From a candidate division WWE3 bacterium (GTDB lineage: Bacteria; Patescibacteriota; WWE3; 2-01-FULL-39-13), in NCBI GenBank assembly GCA_943354835.1, contig CALRDH010000001.1:191298-255297 (forward strand): DNA of 64,000 nucleotides. Reading direction: 5' to 3'. Within the stretch, counting starts at the first letter, position 1. Each line of letters opens with the position of its first letter. The position numbers and the translations under genes were made by a program. The notes below the pieces were generated by a model. That model was not told where the DNA came from. It was given only the letters and a program-made list of their open reading frames with translations, and did not search any database. Shown here in pieces: positions 17,544 to 37,014 of the stretch.

Positions 17544-17843
17544 ATGAAGAAAACTCAAAGAGAAATAAATATTCGTGAAGCAAGACCTCTCCTTAATAAG
17601 TTATCTGAAGAAGTCGCGTTAACTGATGGTTATTACATAATTACTGTTCGAGATAAACCAAGGTCCATATTAACAAATTACAATGAAGAATTGGTTAGCA
17701 TGCTTGACAAGAAAATGTCTAAAAAATCTGTTACTGCAGGCTCTGTTTTTGCAGATGGAATGGGTAAATGGTTTAAAAACAATCCCCCTATAATTTCTAA
17801 AAAAGATATCACAAGAGAGATTGATAAAATCGCATATGTTTGA
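17544..17843 (+). CDS. Phd/YefM-type antitoxin
   Basis: INIREARPLLNKLSEEVALTDGYYIITVRDKPRSILT fits the Phd/YefM N-terminal fold; overlaps the downstream PIN gene by 23 nt. Confidence 0.6.
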   Translation: MKKTQREINIREARPLLNKLSEEVALTDGYYIITVRDKPRSILTNYNEELVSMLDKKMSKKSVTAGSVFADGMGKWFKNNPPIISKKDITREIDKIAYV

Positions 17844-18264
17844 CGAAGTCTCTTCCTTACTTTTAGATACAAGTTTTATTGTCGGACTTTTTTATGGAGA
17901 TAAATCGACTATTGATAAAGTTTATGATGTTTTGCCTGCGCTCATCACTGTAGACCATCTGTATATTAATAATTACATTATGTCTGAAACACTTACTGTG
18001 CTTTCTCAAAGGATTGGAAAGAAAAAGGCAAGGGAAAGCCTTGAATTTATTTCTGGGCAACGCGTAGATTTAATAGATATCTTAAGAAAAACCGAAGATT
18101 TGGCATTCGATGAATTCTTTAAAATTGAAAGAAAGGATATTAGTTTTGTTGACGTGATGTCTGTTTTGCAAGCTAAAGAAAAATCAATAGGTGGTGTGCT
18201 TACTTTGGACAAGCATTTTGGGTATCTAGGTAAGAAATATGGTGTAAAGATATTTGCGCTGTAA
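17821..18264 (+). CDS. PIN-domain toxin (VapC-like)
   Basis: LLLDTSFIVGLFY... is a PIN acidic N-terminal motif; 147 aa, overlapping the upstream antitoxin. Confidence 0.65.
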   Translation: MIKSHMFDEVSSLLLDTSFIVGLFYGDKSTIDKVYDVLPALITVDHLYINNYIMSETLTVLSQRIGKKKARESLEFISGQRVDLIDILRKTEDLAFDEFFKIERKDISFVDVMSVLQAKEKSIGGVLTLDKHFGYLGKKYGVKIFAL

Positions 18265-18355: not shown

Positions 18356-18432
18356 GGGCGGATAGCTCAACTGGTTAGAGCATCAAGCTTATACCTTGAA
18401 GGTTCATGGTTCGAGTCCATGTCCGCCCACCA
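18356..18432 (+). tRNA. tRNA-Ile with UAU anticodon (TAT), CCA encoded
   Basis: GGGCGGATAGCTCAACTGGTTAGAGCATCAAGCTTATACCTTGAAGGTTCATGGTTCGAGTCCATGTCCGCCCACCA has a perfect 5-bp anticodon stem TCAAG/CTTGA, loop CTTATAC (U33, A37) and discriminator A73. Confidence 0.8.
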
Positions 18433-18834: not shown

Positions 18835-19722
18835 ATGTCAGTTAATGTAATAGAAGACCATTCTTTGTCGACATCATCCTTGGAAGATGTTTTTGGCATT
18901 GGCCATGTCGAAGTAACATGTAACCCAATCGCGGTAAATCAAAGGTGGGAACATCAGCTAAATGAGCGACATTTAAAGCTAGTTACGGTTTTATGTGTCC
19001 CATGTAATTCAAGTGGGTGGTTTTGTCGCTTAGACGACCCTAATCATAAAGCTACACAACAACTTGAGATCATTAATGAAGCCGTAAGGAACATCCAGAG
19101 GTTGGGTTTTGCAGTTGACTGGACTGTAATACTGGGTGATATTTCTAATTTTGTTGGGCTGTGTTTGGATGGACGTGAGATAGGTGAAGCGGTTAATTTA
19201 TCTACTTCCTTTTTGACGTCGCACGGAAATGCGCCGTTTGATGGTGCTGGCTTTTTAATTGGTGAATATGAGGAACGCCTTAAGAAGAATTTTTTTAGCG
19301 GTAATGTATCAGTGGCTTCAGCTTTAGAAAAAACATCAGAGTTGGATGCCGTTATACTTAGAGAAAGATTTGAAATGGCCAATTCATTAATACGAGATTT
19401 AGGTTGTAGCCAAGAGTGGCGCTTGCAAGTCGAAAGTCTGGCACGGGCGAAAGGGGCGAAAACAAAGAGTTTTCCAGATAGTTTGCAAATGCTGTTAAGC
19501 TTAAATAAGGTTGAGTCGAATATTTGGTCGGAGGCATTATTTGAGTTGATAGGTTCTGCACGTGTAAGGACCTTGGTTTCAGCATGCTTTCCGGAAAATA
19601 GTATCTTGGTTTCTATGCAGTCACCGGAAATCGATGATTTTTTTCATTTATTAGGAAATGGCGAAAGTTTTCCAACAATTAGAGCTTTTCCTAGAGAATT
19701 ACTTAGTAGTTTAGATGATTAG
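18835..19722 (+). CDS. Hypothetical protein (no recognisable domain), moderately GC-shifted
   Basis: 295 aa ORF; its composition (W, R, C, H more frequent) differs from core genes. Confidence 0.4.
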   Translation: MSVNVIEDHSLSTSSLEDVFGIGHVEVTCNPIAVNQRWEHQLNERHLKLVTVLCVPCNSSGWFCRLDDPNHKATQQLEIINEAVRNIQRLGFAVDWTVILGDISNFVGLCLDGREIGEAVNLSTSFLTSHGNAPFDGAGFLIGEYEERLKKNFFSGNVSVASALEKTSELDAVILRERFEMANSLIRDLGCSQEWRLQVESLARAKGAKTKSFPDSLQMLLSLNKVESNIWSEALFELIGSARVRTLVSACFPENSILVSMQSPEIDDFFHLLGNGESFPTIRAFPRELLSSLDD

Positions 19723-19854
19723 GAATGGAAATAATAATATGAAAATTAACGAATTGAATTTATCAAGCCCTATTGGTATAGATCAAGTTGATTGGTCGAA
19801 AACCGTGAACATATATACGATTTTATGTCCGTTTATAAAGGTTACAAAAAATGA

Positions 19855-20610
19855 ATGTTTTTTTCTTCTGATTTAAGGTTTTATTCAAAGGTTGAAGGAG
19901 ATCATTTTATTGATGTGGCCGATGCCGTACAAGTGAATCCAAAATTTATATTATTAACTTTTGAATTGCCAATTATTTTAGAGAAGTTAAACTCGATGGG
20001 GATTAATTATAAATACACGATTTATATTGCGGACGAACTTAATACGTTGATGAGGCGATATATTAGTGATTGTGGCAAAGAAGCAATAGAAAAAATTGAA
20101 AAAAGTCGTTGGTTAATGTTGTCTAGTGTTAAGGAAGCCCTTGATATTGCATTGAATGGCAAGAATATTCAAGTCGACGTTCTTTTGACTTCTCGAGTAG
20201 AAAAAATGGAAAAGAGTATTGATGATTTGTTTTTGAAACTTTTGAACGAAAGTTTCCGAAAGGAGTTTTTGAGTAAGTCGCAAAAAGAGTATGCTGAACT
20301 TGTTGAATATTGGAAGAATCTTTCTGGGTATGAAGGTAAGGAATTTGAAAAGATGATTTTAAGGGATCAAGTTGCTTATCGCGCGGTTATGGGCGAGGTA
20401 ATCAGGAAAAGTGGTAATCCATTGATTTTTTCAGGTCAGCCACCAGAGCCAGGTGATTATTTCCATGGAATTATAAAGAAAAAGGTCTTACCAACAATGC
20501 ATGTTTTCAGAAATGTAGAAGGGATTGATGTTATAAGCGATATTGTGAATGAAGCCGATTTAAATATTCATATGAAGAAATTCGACAAGATTAGTTTTGT
20601 AGATTTGTAA
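19855..20610 (+). CDS. Hypothetical protein
   Basis: 251 aa ORF with no recognisable motif. Confidence 0.4.
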   Translation: MFFSSDLRFYSKVEGDHFIDVADAVQVNPKFILLTFELPIILEKLNSMGINYKYTIYIADELNTLMRRYISDCGKEAIEKIEKSRWLMLSSVKEALDIALNGKNIQVDVLLTSRVEKMEKSIDDLFLKLLNESFRKEFLSKSQKEYAELVEYWKNLSGYEGKEFEKMILRDQVAYRAVMGEVIRKSGNPLIFSGQPPEPGDYFHGIIKKKVLPTMHVFRNVEGIDVISDIVNEADLNIHMKKFDKISFVDL

Positions 20611-20630
20611 TAATGTTATATCTTTGATGT

Positions 20631-21191
20631 ATGCAAGACCACACGAATTCAGATTCAAAAAATCAGGCTGTCCCAACTATTCTGGAAGTTGCGCGTGATG
20701 CAATGAATTCTACTGAGGTTGATTTGTATCAATCCGGCAATATTTCTATAATTGGGGAAACCCATATTGTTGCTGGAGCTAACGATAAAATTATTTCTGT
20801 TGTTAAAGAAAAAATAGCAGGTTCACATACTGTATTTTTAGAATTTGATCCTGATAGTATATTGTCAGCAACATATAAGGAGTCTTCTGTGTCTCCTAGT
20901 GCTGGATCTATAGCAAAGGAATTAGCCATAGAAGCCGGAAAGCCGGTTGTTATATTAGATGATAGAGTCTCTTCTCCTATGCGTAAATTTGAGCAGGTTG
21001 GTTTTACCGGCGAAGAAGCGGTAAAAGCTTATGGATGTCAGCTTGGAATACTTTATTTTATTGAACGTCCTAACGAATCGCCGACTTTTGTTATAGGTGA
21101 CTTTTTAACAAAATTAGGCGCATCGGAGAGTACAACGCTTGAGGTTTGTAATCGCGTTCATGGTGGAATTATGGGCTTTCTTAGAAATTAA
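20631..21191 (+). CDS. TIKI/TraB/PrgY-family protein, N-terminal part (first GxxH repeat)
   Basis: IIGETHIVAGANDKIISVVKEKIAGSHTVFLEFDPD resembles the first GxxH...E half of the TraB/GumN/TIKI fold. It terminates at TAA in the same frame as the next ORF. Confidence 0.4.
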   Translation: MQDHTNSDSKNQAVPTILEVARDAMNSTEVDLYQSGNISIIGETHIVAGANDKIISVVKEKIAGSHTVFLEFDPDSILSATYKESSVSPSAGSIAKELAIEAGKPVVILDDRVSSPMRKFEQVGFTGEEAVKAYGCQLGILYFIERPNESPTFVIGDFLTKLGASESTTLEVCNRVHGGIMGFLRN

Positions 21192-21203
21192 GAAGGATAC
21201 GGG

Positions 21204-21431
21204 ATGTTTGATTTTTTAAGAGATTACAGTTTAGGAGATTCTGTAATAAGAGACCATGAATATGCCGGAGCTATAAAAAGGGCTCTTGGTGATGATCCGA
21301 ATCAAACCGCGACTGTGGTTGTTGGTAAGTCGCATGCAAAACCAATAGCAGATATTCTAAACAACGAATATCAGCCCCCAGAAAATATAAAAGGTGTTAT
21401 TAAAAACGTTCGTGATTATATTAATCGATAA
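21204..21431 (+). CDS. TIKI/TraB-family C-terminal fragment (second GxxH repeat), in frame with the preceding ORF
   Basis: VVVGKSHAKPIADIL is the second GxxH motif. Both ORFs share a frame and are separated only by TAA plus 12 nt, suggesting a nonsense-interrupted gene. Confidence 0.35.
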   Translation: MFDFLRDYSLGDSVIRDHEYAGAIKRALGDDPNQTATVVVGKSHAKPIADILNNEYQPPENIKGVIKNVRDYINR

Positions 21432-21529: not shown

Positions 21530-21754
21530 ATGAAAACAATTCGTACAACTTTCAGAATTGAAGAACAACTAAAAATAGAGGCAGATAAAAAAGCTTTTGA
21601 TTTGAATATTACGTTACAAAAGTTGTTCAACGATGCTTTGCGCATGTTATTGAAAGATTTGAGTAGACAAAAAGCTTCTAGAGTAGTTCTTTTTAGTAAG
21701 CCAGTCGACAAAAGGATCGATAATTTAACAAGAGACGAAATTTATGAAGATTAA
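21530..21754 (+). CDS. Ribbon-helix-helix (CopG/VapB-like) antitoxin
   Basis: 74 aa; RTTFRIEEQLKIEADKKAFDLNITLQKLFNDALRMLL is RHH-like; overlaps the downstream PIN gene by 11 nt. Confidence 0.5.
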   Translation: MKTIRTTFRIEEQLKIEADKKAFDLNITLQKLFNDALRMLLKDLSRQKASRVVLFSKPVDKRIDNLTRDEIYED

Positions 21755-22196
21755 TGGAAAAAAGTTGCTTATAGATAGCAATATATTAATCTACTCTGTA
21801 GATAGTCTTTCTCCGAAATATGATGTTTCTGTAAGCTTTATGAAAGCTTCCGCAGATAAGCTTTGCTTTCCAGTAATAGCTCATCAAAATATTCTAGAAA
21901 CTGTAAGGGTGTTAACTCACAAGAAGTATAATAATCCACTAACAAAAGATGAAGTTTTTATTTTTACTAAAAGTCTGGAGAAGTTTTGTGAGGTTATCTC
22001 TCCTAACCGTGAAACATGGGAAATTATGAAGGCCTTATTAGGCAAGTATAAAGTTATTTCGAATCGGATATTTGATTGTTATCTGGTTGCGACAATGCTT
22101 TCAAATGATATAAAAATTATCGCAACTGATAACGTTAAAGATTTAGAAATTTTTGAAGAAATAAAAGTTTACAATCCTTATAATTTAAGTTCATGA
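21744..22196 (+). CDS. PIN-domain toxin (VapC-like)
   Basis: KKLLIDSNILIYSVD... is the PIN N-terminal motif; 150 aa. Confidence 0.65.
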   Translation: MKINGKKLLIDSNILIYSVDSLSPKYDVSVSFMKASADKLCFPVIAHQNILETVRVLTHKKYNNPLTKDEVFIFTKSLEKFCEVISPNRETWEIMKALLGKYKVISNRIFDCYLVATMLSNDIKIIATDNVKDLEIFEEIKVYNPYNLSS

Positions 22197-30618: not shown

Positions 30619-30623
30619 CCCTT
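30611..30623. terminator. Recurring 13-nt hairpin motif AAGGGTAGCCCTT spanning the stop codons of two convergent genes
   Basis: The same motif (or its reverse complement) occurs at 18266, 32203 and 60000. Here the TAG stop of the + gene and TAA stop of the - gene both lie inside it. Confidence 0.3.
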
Positions 30624-31491
30624 ATAATTCCTCTAGCTCTCCGAGTCCAGATTCTTTTCTGTCTATATAGCGAAGGTAGTTTTCTGTTGTGGTTAGTCTT
30701 TTGTGTCCTGCGATTTTAGAGACGAGAAGAACGCTTGCTCCTCTTTTGAGGTGTTCTGCTACAAATGTGTGTCTTAAATCATTTACAGTGACGTCATCGA
30801 GCTGAATTTGTTTAAGATATCTTCCAATTGTCGCTCTTATGTTTCTAACTAGTAATGGATTTCCTGTTTTTGTTACGAATAAATGGTCGAGTTTTGAAGA
30901 AGGTCTTTCTTTTAGAAAGCCTTTTATTGCAGAAATTACTGCAGAATTAAGAGGAATTGTTCTGCCTGGGTTTTCTTTTGTTCCAGGTACTTCTAAAATT
31001 CCTTTTGCATCATGTTCTATTTTTATGTGATCGACTTTAATAAATGCTAATTCAGATATTCTAAGGCCTGTTTGAAGGAAGATTTCTATTATTGCACGTG
31101 TTCTTATATCGTCTTTTACTGTATCTCTTAACGCTCTGTACTCGATTTTAGTTAATATTCTTGGAGCATTTTGCTCAAGCCTTGGATGTTGAATAAATTG
31201 TGCAGGATCGTTTTCTATAATTCTTTCGTCAAGAAGAAATTTAAAAAATGTTTTGATTGCATTTATTTTTCTTGAGATAGTTTTTTTTGTGTAATTACTG
31301 TCCGATAGGTTTCTTAAGAAGTTCTCAATAATGGATTTACTAAGCTCGTGGGCACTTGATATATTTTGCCTTACTGCGAAGTCTGCTAATTGCTCAATAT
31401 CCTTTGCATAGGCCACAACAGTCGCTGTCGCTCTGCCTTTTGATATCAAACTCTGTACAAATTTTTCCCTCGCTGATGACAATAGTGTCAT
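30622..31491 (-). CDS. Tyrosine site-specific recombinase, XerC/XerD family
   Basis: 289 aa with catalytic R...HxxR...Y spacing (ARG, HDLRHTF, TENYLRY) and an N-terminal SAM-like core-binding domain. Confidence 0.8.
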   Translation of the reverse strand: MTLLSSAREKFVQSLISKGRATATVVAYAKDIEQLADFAVRQNISSAHELSKSIIENFLRNLSDSNYTKKTISRKINAIKTFFKFLLDERIIENDPAQFIQHPRLEQNAPRILTKIEYRALRDTVKDDIRTRAIIEIFLQTGLRISELAFIKVDHIKIEHDAKGILEVPGTKENPGRTIPLNSAVISAIKGFLKERPSSKLDHLFVTKTGNPLLVRNIRATIGRYLKQIQLDDVTVNDLRHTFVAEHLKRGASVLLVSKIAGHKRLTTTENYLRYIDRKESGLGELEEL

Positions 31492-31581: not shown

Positions 31582-31656
31582 TGGTTGCGGGGCCAGGATT
31601 TGCACCTGGGTCTCGAGATTATGAGCCTCGCGTGGTTGCTACTCCACTACCCCGCG
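31582..31656 (-). tRNA. tRNA-Met (anticodon CAT), initiator-like (C1xA72 mismatch)
   Basis: Minus-strand sequence CGCGGGGTAGTGGAGTAGCAACCACGCGAGGCTCATAATCTCGAGACCCAGGTGCAAATCCTGGCCCCGCAACCA has anticodon loop CTCATAA. The 5' C opposite A72 is the bacterial initiator hallmark, though the anticodon stem lacks three G-C pairs. Confidence 0.7.
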
Positions 31657-32116: not shown

Positions 32117-32192
32117 CTGGCGGCGTAGCTCAACGGTTAGAGCACAGCCCTCATAAAGCTGGGGTTGGTAGTTCGATTCTACCCGCCGCCAC
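32117..32192 (+). tRNA. tRNA-Met (anticodon CAT), elongator-type (G1-C72 paired); could alternatively be a lysidine tRNA-Ile2
   Basis: GGCGGCGTAGCTCAACGGTTAGAGCACAGCCCTCATAAAGCTGGGGTTGGTAGTTCGATTCTACCCGCCGCCACCA with anticodon loop CTCATAA. Confidence 0.75.
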
Positions 32193-32202
32193 CATTGCAG
32201 AT

Positions 32203-35994: not shown

Positions 35995-36963
35995 TATGAA
36001 TTTGCCTATAGTGGAAGTAGAAGCTGTTTTTTTTCCCAAGATGTTTTAGAAGCTTATGAATCTGCCCCCAGGCCTAAATATCTAGTAGCAGGGTTAAGTG
36101 TTGAATTTAAAAGTGACAGAAAACCTAAATCTGTTCCAACTCCAGCGTGTCAACTTTTCGCAGTAAATAATACTGAAAGTCATGATGTTTACTTTTTTGT
36201 ACAAGATAATGGTTGTGATTTTGAAGCCGACTTAACAAGTCTTGATGCATGTGAGTCTATTGTACTAAGTTATATTTTGCTTGGTTATGATGATAAATTC
36301 AGTATATCGGAGGATACAAAAGTTTATTTAATTAAACGATGTTTACAACTCGGTCAAGACTTCGATAAAACTGTTTCTTATATTTATGCAAAAACGGGGG
36401 TTGATATTAAAGATGTTACTGTTATGGCTATCTCTACAGAAGATTTAAATGCAGATTTAGGTATGCGTGCAAAAAATATTCAAAGTCTGTGTACTAGACG
36501 GTGTAGCGATTCTGAAGTTGAAAGATTGCTCCCCGAAATATTGAAGGCATTACCTAATAAAAAAATTGTTAAAGGCGATGAATTAAAAGAAATTAAGCCG
36601 ATTCAGTGGGATGTTGACGAAAAAGGACGTTCTTATCTAAAAATTTTCAATCGTTATGGTCATTCGTTTTTTTTATATGAGCCAAATGGAAAGCCTAAGT
36701 ATGTTGTTGAATCCTGTGCGACTGAAATTTCAAAAGTACATGGAGGTGGTAGTTTTCCGTTTTTAGCAATTCAACTTGCAATTAGTAATGGAGGTGAAGT
36801 TTCTGAAGAAGTGCTATTAGGCTTAGCAAAGGGACAAGGTCATAAAGCTGGTTTAGCGCAATTGCTTAAAGGATGTGGAATTTTTTGTTTTGATAAAAAA
36901 AGTCGCATGTATTATTTAGATACTCTTGGCGGAGGGGGGGGGATTCGAACCCCCGTGCCATAA
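35995..36963 (+). CDS. Hypothetical protein (ORF extended upstream of the track call to ATG at 35995)
   Basis: The reading frame is open from the TAA at 35962 through an ATG at 35995 into the track ORF 36277..36963 (its first codon is TTG). The 3' 37 nt overlap tRNA-Ser(CGA) on the opposite strand. Confidence 0.4.
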   Translation, partial: YEFAYSGSRSCFFSQDVLEAYESAPRPKYLVAGLSVEFKSDRKPKSVPTPACQLFAVNNTESHDVYFFVQDNGCDFEADLTSLDACESIVLSYILLGYDDKFSISEDTKVYLIKRCLQLGQDFDKTVSYIYAKTGVDIKDVTVMAISTEDLNADLGMRAKNIQSLCTRRCSDSEVERLLPEILKALPNKKIVKGDELKEIKPIQWDVDEKGRSYLKIFNRYGHSFFLYEPNGKPKYVVESCATEISKVHGGGSFPFLAIQLAISNGGEVSEEVLLGLAKGQGHKAGLAQLLKGCGIFCFDKKSRMYYLDTLGGGGGIRTPVP

Positions 36964-37014
36964 ATGACGCAAGCTTTTCGAGAGCTGCCAATTAAACCGC
37001 TCTTGCACCCCTCC
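36927..37014 (-). tRNA. tRNA-Ser (anticodon CGA), long variable arm
   Basis: Minus-strand sequence GGAGGGGTGCAAGAGCGGTTTAATTGGCAGCTCTCGAAAAGCTTGCGTCATTTATGGCACGGGGGTTCGAATCCCCCCCCCTCCGCCA has anticodon loop CTCGAAA and the same acceptor stem as the GCT isoacceptor. Confidence 0.75.

Follow-up and report, generated by a model that had tools for sequence, protein, structure and literature searches.

A genome-encoded tRNA-Ile(UAU) as candidate decoder of AUA in a bacterium of the Candidate Phyla Radiation

How AUA is read as isoleucine without AUG being read as well counts among the classic problems of the genetic code. According to reviews up to 2025–26, bacteria solve it by means of TilS and lysidine, with rare exceptions such as Mycoplasma mobile. 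TilS was reported in 98.18 % of surveyed bacteria in 2018, bacterial tRNA-Ile(UAU) was known from 19 species in 2014 (tRNADB-CE), and a preprint of 2026 speaks of "rare cases". The same question is raised by a gene for tRNA-Ile(UAU) in a stretch of 64,000 nucleotides (the window) of a candidate division WWE3 bacterium, which belongs to the Candidate Phyla Radiation (CPR, Patescibacteria; GCA_943354835.1, contig CALRDH010000001.1, positions 191,298 to 255,297 of the forward strand). With a probability of about 0.8, this gene would encode a functional tRNA-Ile(UAU) which reads AUA by U34-A pairing and is a standard, vertically inherited part of the translation apparatus of its lineage.

The tRNA-Ile(UAU) gene and the meaning of AUA

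ARAGORN called a tRNA-Ile with anticodon tat at exactly the position given in Table 1, and the Rfam model RF00005 matched positions 18356-18429 over its full length (72.6 bits, E 6.2e-14, model 1-71/71; Infernal, gathering score 29), the highest Rfam score among the tRNAs of the window. As read, the gene is GGGCGGA-TA-GCTC-AACTGGTTA-GAGC-A-TCAAG-CTTATAC-CTTGA-AGGTT-CATGG-TTCGAGT-CCATG-TCCGCCC-A-CCA, with acceptor stem GGGCGGA/TCCGCCC, D stem GCTC/GAGC, T arm CATGG/CCATG and a 7-nt anticodon loop C32 U33 U34 A35 U36 A37 C38. The anticodon hairpin is preserved in the RNAfold minimum-free-energy structure (z = -3.46), and none of 200 shuffles folded as stably. An earlier note, made from the letters alone, had described a canonical cloverleaf with these coordinates, this anticodon stem and loop, and a UAU anticodon; all of this was borne out by ARAGORN, Rfam and direct reading. 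The tRNA-finder check proposed there returned tRNA-Ile(tat), and neither ARAGORN nor Rfam offered an alternative fold or anticodon for 18356-18432. The element is confirmed as a genuine, canonical bacterial tRNA-Ile(UAU) gene. It carries the Ile-type marks G3:C70, C4:G69, U12:A23 and A73; by the rule of Silva et al. 2006 (PMC1635315), an acceptor pair 3:70 other than C:G marks tRNA-Ile versus tRNA-Met.

The GTDB genomes (one per species) were scanned with a pattern which fixed D-arm and T-loop (D-arm GGTNAGAGC, loop CTTATA, T-loop GTTCRA). At least 120 stretches matched, and all 119 that were retrieved were called as tRNA-Ile(tat) by ARAGORN. By record title, 58 of these 119 listed matches are from CPR, 23 of them from Saccharibacteria and the others from Paceibacterota/Parcubacteria, Nomura-, Taylor-, Kaiser-, Uhr-, Falkow-, Kuenen-, Moranii-, Woese-, Shapiro-, Dojka- and Peribacteria. 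Non-CPR matches listed comprise Planctomycetota (8), Chloroflexota (6), DPANN-type archaea (5), Ignavibacteria (3) and others, and several low-GC metagenome-assembled genomes (MAGs) titled "uncultured bacterium" or "Gammaproteobacteria" show CPR-specific tRNA arrangements. UAU tRNA-Ile is spread across CPR classes. The earlier statement that such tRNAs are rare in bacteria holds for the literature, which treats mostly cultivated bacteria, but not for this lineage, as judged from the CPR matches listed and from all seven Parcubacteria FtsH loci described below; for its clade, tRNA-Ile(UAU) is ordinary.

In an alignment of 118 UAU tRNAs on the cloverleaf of the window's gene, 99.3 % of cells were paired, and compensatory double changes occurred in 16 of the 21 pairs. 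The covarying pairs include all those of the acceptor and anticodon stems and four out of five of the T stem, none of which was fixed by the search pattern; the five anticodon-stem pairs each showed 59-91 double changes across the 118 homologues. Position 3:70 is not C:G in 118 of the 119 listed tRNAs, and A73 is present in 115. The family is, by this pattern of pairing, under strong structural selection.

ATA accounts for 590 of the 18,516 codons in 73 open reading frames (ORFs) of the window (31.9 per 1000 codons; 33 % of isoleucine codons) at a GC content of 34.6 %, which agrees with the earlier claim that AUA is frequent in this AT-rich genome. In a Codetta-style check, isoleucine (0.43), valine (0.19) and leucine (0.16) were found aligned to 390 ATA positions in homologues; methionine was outside the top seven residues there and reached 0.28 at ATG positions. 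Because ATA columns align with isoleucine, valine and leucine, AUA is taken to mean isoleucine in this organism.

In the mechanism proposed, U34 would pair directly with the A of AUA, and isoleucyl-tRNA synthetase (IleRS) would charge the tRNA by recognising A73, C4:G69 and U12:A23 in addition to the UAU anticodon. The tRNA would do most, and probably all, of the AUA decoding, in a cell devoid of both TilS and tRNA-Ile2(CAU), as in M. mobile. Misreading of AUG would be limited by an unmodified or specially handled U34 that binds G-ending codons poorly, and IleRS and the ribosome may be co-adapted to UAU. The IleRS of M. mobile accepts UAU via Arg865, that of E. coli does not (PMC3575796), and tilS-less Bifidobacterium and Neorickettsia use a eukaryote-type IleRS. 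On its own ribosomes, M. mobile tRNA-Ile(UAU) binds AUA and not AUG, and in a B. subtilis tilS-deletion suppressor AUG binding was weak, with misincorporation of about 1 in 1000 (PMC3919564). IleRS is not encoded in the window, where the largest ORF is PNPase (739 aa).

The ftsH neighbourhood and the search for tilS

Among the listed UAU loci, 27 contain ftsH (E. coli FtsH probe), and in 21 of them the tRNA gene lies directly downstream in the same orientation, in many cases no more than about 100 nt away; the order ftsH, tRNA-Ile(UAU) is seen, e.g., in L013, L023, L025, L034, L051, L081, L087, L088, L096, L105 and L119, and in L372-L378. A sample independent of tRNAs was drawn by means of a Taylorbacteria FtsH seed, which gave 120 Parcubacteria FtsH orthologues (77-100 % identity); seven of these on long contigs were taken with 10 kb on each side. 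All seven loci, chosen without regard to tRNAs, contain tRNA-Ile(UAU) 50-1050 nt downstream of ftsH, and the gene is fixed within the sampled Parcubacteria FtsH clade. In many CPR the UAU gene is located directly downstream of ftsH, the classic neighbour of tilS.

Classically, tilS lies just upstream of (hpt-)ftsH. Of 45 ordinary bacterial TilS loci with enough sequence, 23 (51 %) have an ftsH that starts no more than 3 kb downstream of tilS. Neither tilS nor hpt was detected upstream of ftsH in the 10 UAU loci with at least 2.5 kb of upstream sequence (7-8 of them CPR) or in the seven further Parcubacteria loci, which brings the ftsH neighbourhoods inspected to 17, 14-15 of them CPR. Upstream of CPR ftsH, genes for histidine kinases, SmpB, a P-type ATPase, EF-P and unknowns were observed; the ORFs without Pfam match were considered as hidden TilS and rejected, being neither homologous to each other nor TilS. 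The tilS-ftsH linkage is absent in the inspected CPR loci. Because the ftsH neighbourhood is the classic position of tilS, this absence says more than random sampling would.

A hidden Markov model built from 28 diverse TilS N-domains recovered all positive controls (80/80 metagenome loci, 41/41 phage loci). At E<10 it matched nothing in the window, in an extension of about 9 kb to its left, in the 119 UAU loci or in the seven further Parcubacteria loci. The PP-loop motif SGGxDS occurs in no frame of the window and in none of the UAU loci, PF01171 is absent from the Pfam tables of the seven further loci, and about 660 kb of CPR DNA yielded no TilS-like ORF. A search for a CPR TilS in metagenomes with a three-sequence TilS profile gave as its best 80 listed matches those most similar to Aquifex, none of which was recognisably CPR. 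A 28-sequence profile applied to a collection of 5.8 billion proteins gave at least 120 unnamed TilS-family matches, among which no CPR protein was recognised; the 120 listed are 56-94 % identical to the first query, a TilS segment from a human-gut metagenome. Literature linking CPR/Patescibacteria with tilS, lysidine or the tRNA-Ile anticodon was not found in the library searched, and the point may nonetheless have been published already. The evidence leans towards a loss of tilS, without proof.

CAU tRNAs and competing readings

The earlier note had placed a second CAT-anticodon tRNA at 32117 and left open whether it serves methionine or is an Ile2. An elongator-type CAT tRNA indeed exists, its extent being 32119-32194, but the Ile2 option was not supported: the tRNA lacks Ile2 marks and occupies a conserved Met-pair position. 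The proposed identity check gave the acceptor pairs C3:G70, G4:C69 and G5:C68, which is neither kind of Ile2 mark, that is, neither a 3:70 pair other than C:G, the position by which Burkholderia tells Ile2 apart, nor C4:G69 with C5:G68. The latter two pairs occur together with C3:G70 in E. coli tRNA-Ile2 (100 % match to features annotated as tRNA-Ile), so that C3:G70 alone was ruled out as proof of Met. Both kinds of mark are also absent from a further CAT tRNA beyond those of the earlier note (ARAGORN; initiator-type in Table 1), which has G4:C69 next to C3:G70 and is thereby of the Met/fMet type; it differs at a mean of 21.2 positions from the initiator-like tRNAs of the loci and at 33-34 from other classes. 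Difference counts for the elongator-type tRNA (21 versus E. coli Met, 23 versus Ile2) are not discriminating. The two CAU tRNAs form a conserved pair beside XerC and TrpRS, as in L005, L026, L083, L086 and L115, where the CAU tRNAs seen near the UAU gene likewise number just one of the initiator type and one of the elongator type. No genome can do without an elongator tRNA-Met, for which the tRNA at 32119 is the only candidate in view; by its pairs and position it is very probably just that.

Both CAU tRNAs show structural peculiarities. In the initiator-type tRNA, the anticodon stem has A29:U41, G30:C40 and G31.U39, without the canonical three G:C pairs, U11:A24 replaces A11:U24 and the D arm is short; this design is common to CPR loci L005, L026 and L115, in which 1:72 is even U:A. 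The mismatch listed for the elongator-type tRNA closes its anticodon stem, and other CPR elongator CAU tRNAs likewise have a non-Watson-Crick 31:39 (CxA in L083, AxC in L005, AxA in L066 and L115, AxG in L114). CAT tRNAs upstream of tilS were considered as a reference set for tRNA-Ile2 and rejected, as they look like elongator tRNA-Met. In eight metagenome TilS loci (L129, L136, L140, L143, L153, L158, L172 and L174) such a tRNA precedes tilS by 88-390 nt in the same orientation and is of the GGCGG- or GGCTGGG-type, with C3:G70 and either G4:C69 or U4:A69; in a ninth (L187) it lies 192 nt upstream and is initiator-like (CGCGGGG, 1:72 mismatch). A Saccharibacteria MAG (L066, 3603-3678, minus strand) contains a CAU tRNA with acceptor GGTGGGA and U3:A70 within 8 kb of a UAU tRNA-Ile and an initiator; it may be an unusual elongator tRNA-Met or, possibly, a tRNA-Ile2(CAU) coexisting with the UAU gene.

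Were TilS and a tRNA-Ile2(CAU) encoded elsewhere in the genome, beyond the window, the UAU tRNA would serve as a second, auxiliary decoder of AUA and provide extra capacity for a very frequent codon. TilS is reported to be evolutionarily stable and to occur in about 98 % of the bacteria surveyed, and most of the genome lies beyond the approximately 73 kb read; the CPR DNA searched, with its 14-15 CPR ftsH neighbourhoods, nevertheless held no TilS-like ORF, and the window has no CAU tRNA bearing Ile2 marks. Large-genome Actinomycetota (L044, L103) are among the listed UAU matches and almost certainly, as we presume, have TilS, so coexistence occurs in nature; among the CAU tRNAs found by UAU genes in other CPR loci, by contrast, a single one is ambiguous (L066, U3:A70). 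A streamlined genome that has its tRNAs in single copy would moreover hardly be expected to keep such redundancy, and the precedents (M. mobile, Bifidobacterium, Neorickettsia, Nanoarchaeum) pair the UAU tRNA with tilS loss. Coexistence is, all told, rather unlikely. That the tRNA was brought in by a phage or an island, or is a pseudogene, and stands outside the core decoding set is far less probable. It is true that viral contigs often carry tRNA-Ile(UAU) (117 among the first 120 pattern matches listed), that the best viral match listed equals the best CPR match in being 85 % identical to the window's tRNA, and that five ORFs without Pfam match follow the gene in a region bracketed by toxin-antitoxin pairs; however, no protein is common to the window and any viral locus, no phage genes lie near the tRNA, and the window contains neither att-like direct repeats nor a second copy of the 25-nt 3' end of the tRNA (3 mismatches allowed). 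An integration-site or island origin was rejected, as no att repeat was found in the window. The sole tyrosine recombinase of the window, XerC-like, is 12 kb away and syntenic in other CPR. The core genes for NusA, IF2, S15 and PNPase lie upstream; the tRNA gene comes after S15-PNPase and a toxin-antitoxin pair, not after ftsH, and the S15-PNPase-tRNA neighbourhood is repeated in a Saccharibacteria MAG (L058). Decay is countered by the perfect cloverleaf with the best tRNA score of the window, by an identical gene in an independent ENA assembly (L001) and by the conservation of the family with compensatory changes. Both alternatives, pseudogene and recent foreign insertion, are largely refuted; the proviso of the earlier note, that tilS plus a clear Ile2(CAU) would make this tRNA a pseudogene, fails whatever the status of tilS, by family-wide pairing and compensatory changes.

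The least probable reading, hardly credible to us, is an altered meaning, in which the UAU tRNA reads AUG besides AUA or carries an amino acid other than isoleucine. Standard wobble lets U34 pair with G, and code variants are known from other classes of CPR; still, ATA columns align to isoleucine, valine and leucine and ATG columns to methionine, the window has distinct CAU tRNAs of initiator and elongator type, the UAU tRNA bears Ile-type acceptor marks and A73, and unmodified U34 in tRNA-Ile(UAU) binds AUG weakly in the two systems tested. The preferred reading, a functional and vertically inherited tRNA-Ile(UAU) as AUA decoder, has several points weighing against it. The E. coli IleRS identity elements are reportedly A73, C4:G69, U12:A23, C29:G41 and A38 (Nureki 1994 set), and the window's tRNA departs from this set in having A29:U41 and C38; among the 58 CPR homologues listed, C38 occurs in 29 and A38 in 26, and the E. 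coli set may not transfer to CPR. A consensus scan beside the gene found no convincing promoter or terminator. The TilS and Ile2 evidence for this genome covers the window and about 9 kb to its left, and tilS or a third CAU tRNA could lie elsewhere. Direct searches, which returned the best-scoring non-CPR proteins, could neither show nor exclude TilS in CPR. The CPR share of the listed matches is no estimate of prevalence, the pattern being restrictive; the seven Parcubacteria loci represent one fairly narrow clade (FtsH 78-86 % identical) that is not the window's own; and the argument from tilS-ftsH linkage assumes that a linkage of other phyla would hold in CPR.

Related systems and genomic setting

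M. mobile, with the same anticodon and, probably, a shared absence of TilS, is the closest known system. It, too, has a small AT-rich genome and a genome-encoded bacterial tRNA-Ile(UAU) for AUA (PMC3575796, PMC1635315); tilS and tRNA-Ile(CAU) are absent, the loss of tilS having been mapped between pth and ftsH, and here too tilS was not found in the window or beside ftsH of CPR relatives. The two differ in that unmodified U34, IleRS Arg865 and ribosome specificity were shown by experiment in M. mobile, whereas the present case is one of gene sequence, and in that M. mobile is a single species within a TilS-bearing clade, whereas the UAU gene spans many CPR classes. The canonical lysidine system (tRNA-Ile2 with CAU converted to LAU) fulfils the same task of reading AUA as isoleucine without AUG, but needs an Ile2-marked CAU tRNA and the PP-loop enzyme TilS, neither of which was found in the window; with an anticodon that is genomically UAU, modification of C34 is unnecessary, and tRNA-Ile(UAU) is not part of that system. 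The suppressor tRNA1-Ile(UAU) of B. subtilis (Kohrer et al. 2014, PMC3919564) demonstrates that unmodified U34 can support AUA decoding, the mechanism proposed here, but arose by a laboratory G34-to-U34 mutation of tRNA1-Ile and is not a natural conserved gene.

Natural users of UAU without a C34-modifying enzyme are Bifidobacterium, Neorickettsia, Nanoarchaeum, Korarchaeum and other DPANN. The archaeal ones differ in replacing TiaS (agmatidine), not TilS. DPANN archaea are also among the listed UAU matches, and in two DPANN-type MAGs (L056, 860-3775, minus strand; L089, 7184-8002, plus strand) the IleRS gene adjoins tRNA-Ile(UAU). For CPR, the large synthetases beside UAU tRNAs (L015, L046, others) were considered as IleRS and dismissed; they bear a ValRS signature and lie among tRNA-Val genes. 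Phage-encoded tRNA-Ile(UAU) resembles the window's tRNA in anticodon, general design and up to 85 % identity, but the window's gene is placed among chromosomal housekeeping genes, with neither phage genes nor att repeats nearby.

UAU tRNA-Ile is common across many CPR lineages, often after ftsH, and no tilS is found in the usual place. Tentatively, and at slightly less than even odds, large parts of CPR, possibly all, may have abandoned TilS and tRNA-Ile2(CAU) for a genomic tRNA-Ile(UAU), such that TilS-independent AUA decoding would be of phylum scale; in bacteria at large, the lysidine system passes for nearly universal and essential. CPR would then parallel the DPANN archaea without TiaS and represent a large natural series of solutions to AUA/AUG discrimination with U34. 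Should tilS indeed be missing there, a different decoding strategy would be in use across a large part of bacterial diversity, TilS would be of less general value than assumed, both as an antibacterial target and as a phylogenetic marker, annotation pipelines for CPR genomes should anticipate tRNA-Ile(UAU) rather than Ile2(CAU), and cultivable CPR (Saccharibacteria epibionts) would be tractable for the question of how U34 avoids AUG. The gene in the window is genuine, functional-looking and normal for its lineage, and the wider interest lies in the lineage-level pattern.

Table 1 Features of the window mentioned in the text
Feature	Position	Strand	Evidence and remarks
tRNA-Ile(UAU) gene, 77 nt	18356..18432	+	ARAGORN, Rfam, direct reading; discriminator A73; 3' CCA encoded at 18430-18432
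Anticodon arm of tRNA-Ile(UAU)	18383..18399	+	Stem TCAAG (18383-18387)/CTTGA (18395-18399); loop CTTATAC (18388-18394)
Anticodon TAT (UAU), cognate to AUA	18390..18392	+	ARAGORN, anticodon at gene position 35
Elongator-type tRNA(CAU)	32119..32194	+	ARAGORN, Rfam 66.2 bits; acceptor GGCGGCG, C31xA39 mismatch
Initiator-type tRNA(CAU)	31582..31656	-	ARAGORN, Rfam 56 bits; C1xA72 mismatch, C3:G70, G12:C23
Antitoxin/PIN-toxin pair	17544..18264		
Five successive ORFs	18835..21431	+	295, 45, 251, 186 and 75 aa; no Pfam match
Antitoxin/PIN-toxin pair	21530..22196		
XerC-like tyrosine recombinase	30622..31491		
tRNA-Ser(cga)	36927..37014	-	ARAGORN; missing from Rfam list at gathering threshold

The window contains compact housekeeping genes, among them those for a 500-aa IF2, PNPase, NusA, S15, TrpRS and DnaG, and many envelope genes outside known families. 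Its XerC falls into a cluster of at least 90 % identity that is shared with a protein of Candidatus Portnoybacteria, and its proteins and gene order correspond to those of CPR/Patescibacteria MAGs. On this gene content, the source organism is a CPR/Patescibacteria bacterium, and the analysis assigned it to the Parcubacteria, with a relationship to Portnoybacteria. Ten tRNA genes were predicted by ARAGORN, nine of which were also confirmed by Rfam, the tenth being the tRNA-Ser(cga) in Table 1. The five ORFs without Pfam match directly follow tRNA-Ile(UAU), and the two antitoxin/PIN-toxin pairs bracket them; evidence for an island was not obtained there.

A scan of viral sequences recovered 41 phage TilS loci with tRNA arrays. 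On contigs L212, L213, L224, L225, L233-L236 and L239-L241, the gene for a TilS homologue is accompanied by a CAT-anticodon tRNA and by tRNA arrays, and these phages apparently supply a lysidine system of their own; on other phage contigs, tRNA-Ile(UAU) is found instead (at least 117 matches). The stretch of about 9 kb on the left side of the window (L245) has the gene order yidC-jag-dnaN, without mnmE/mnmG after jag, and VirB4/TraC/PrgI-like (type IV secretion-like) genes adjoin groES-groEL.

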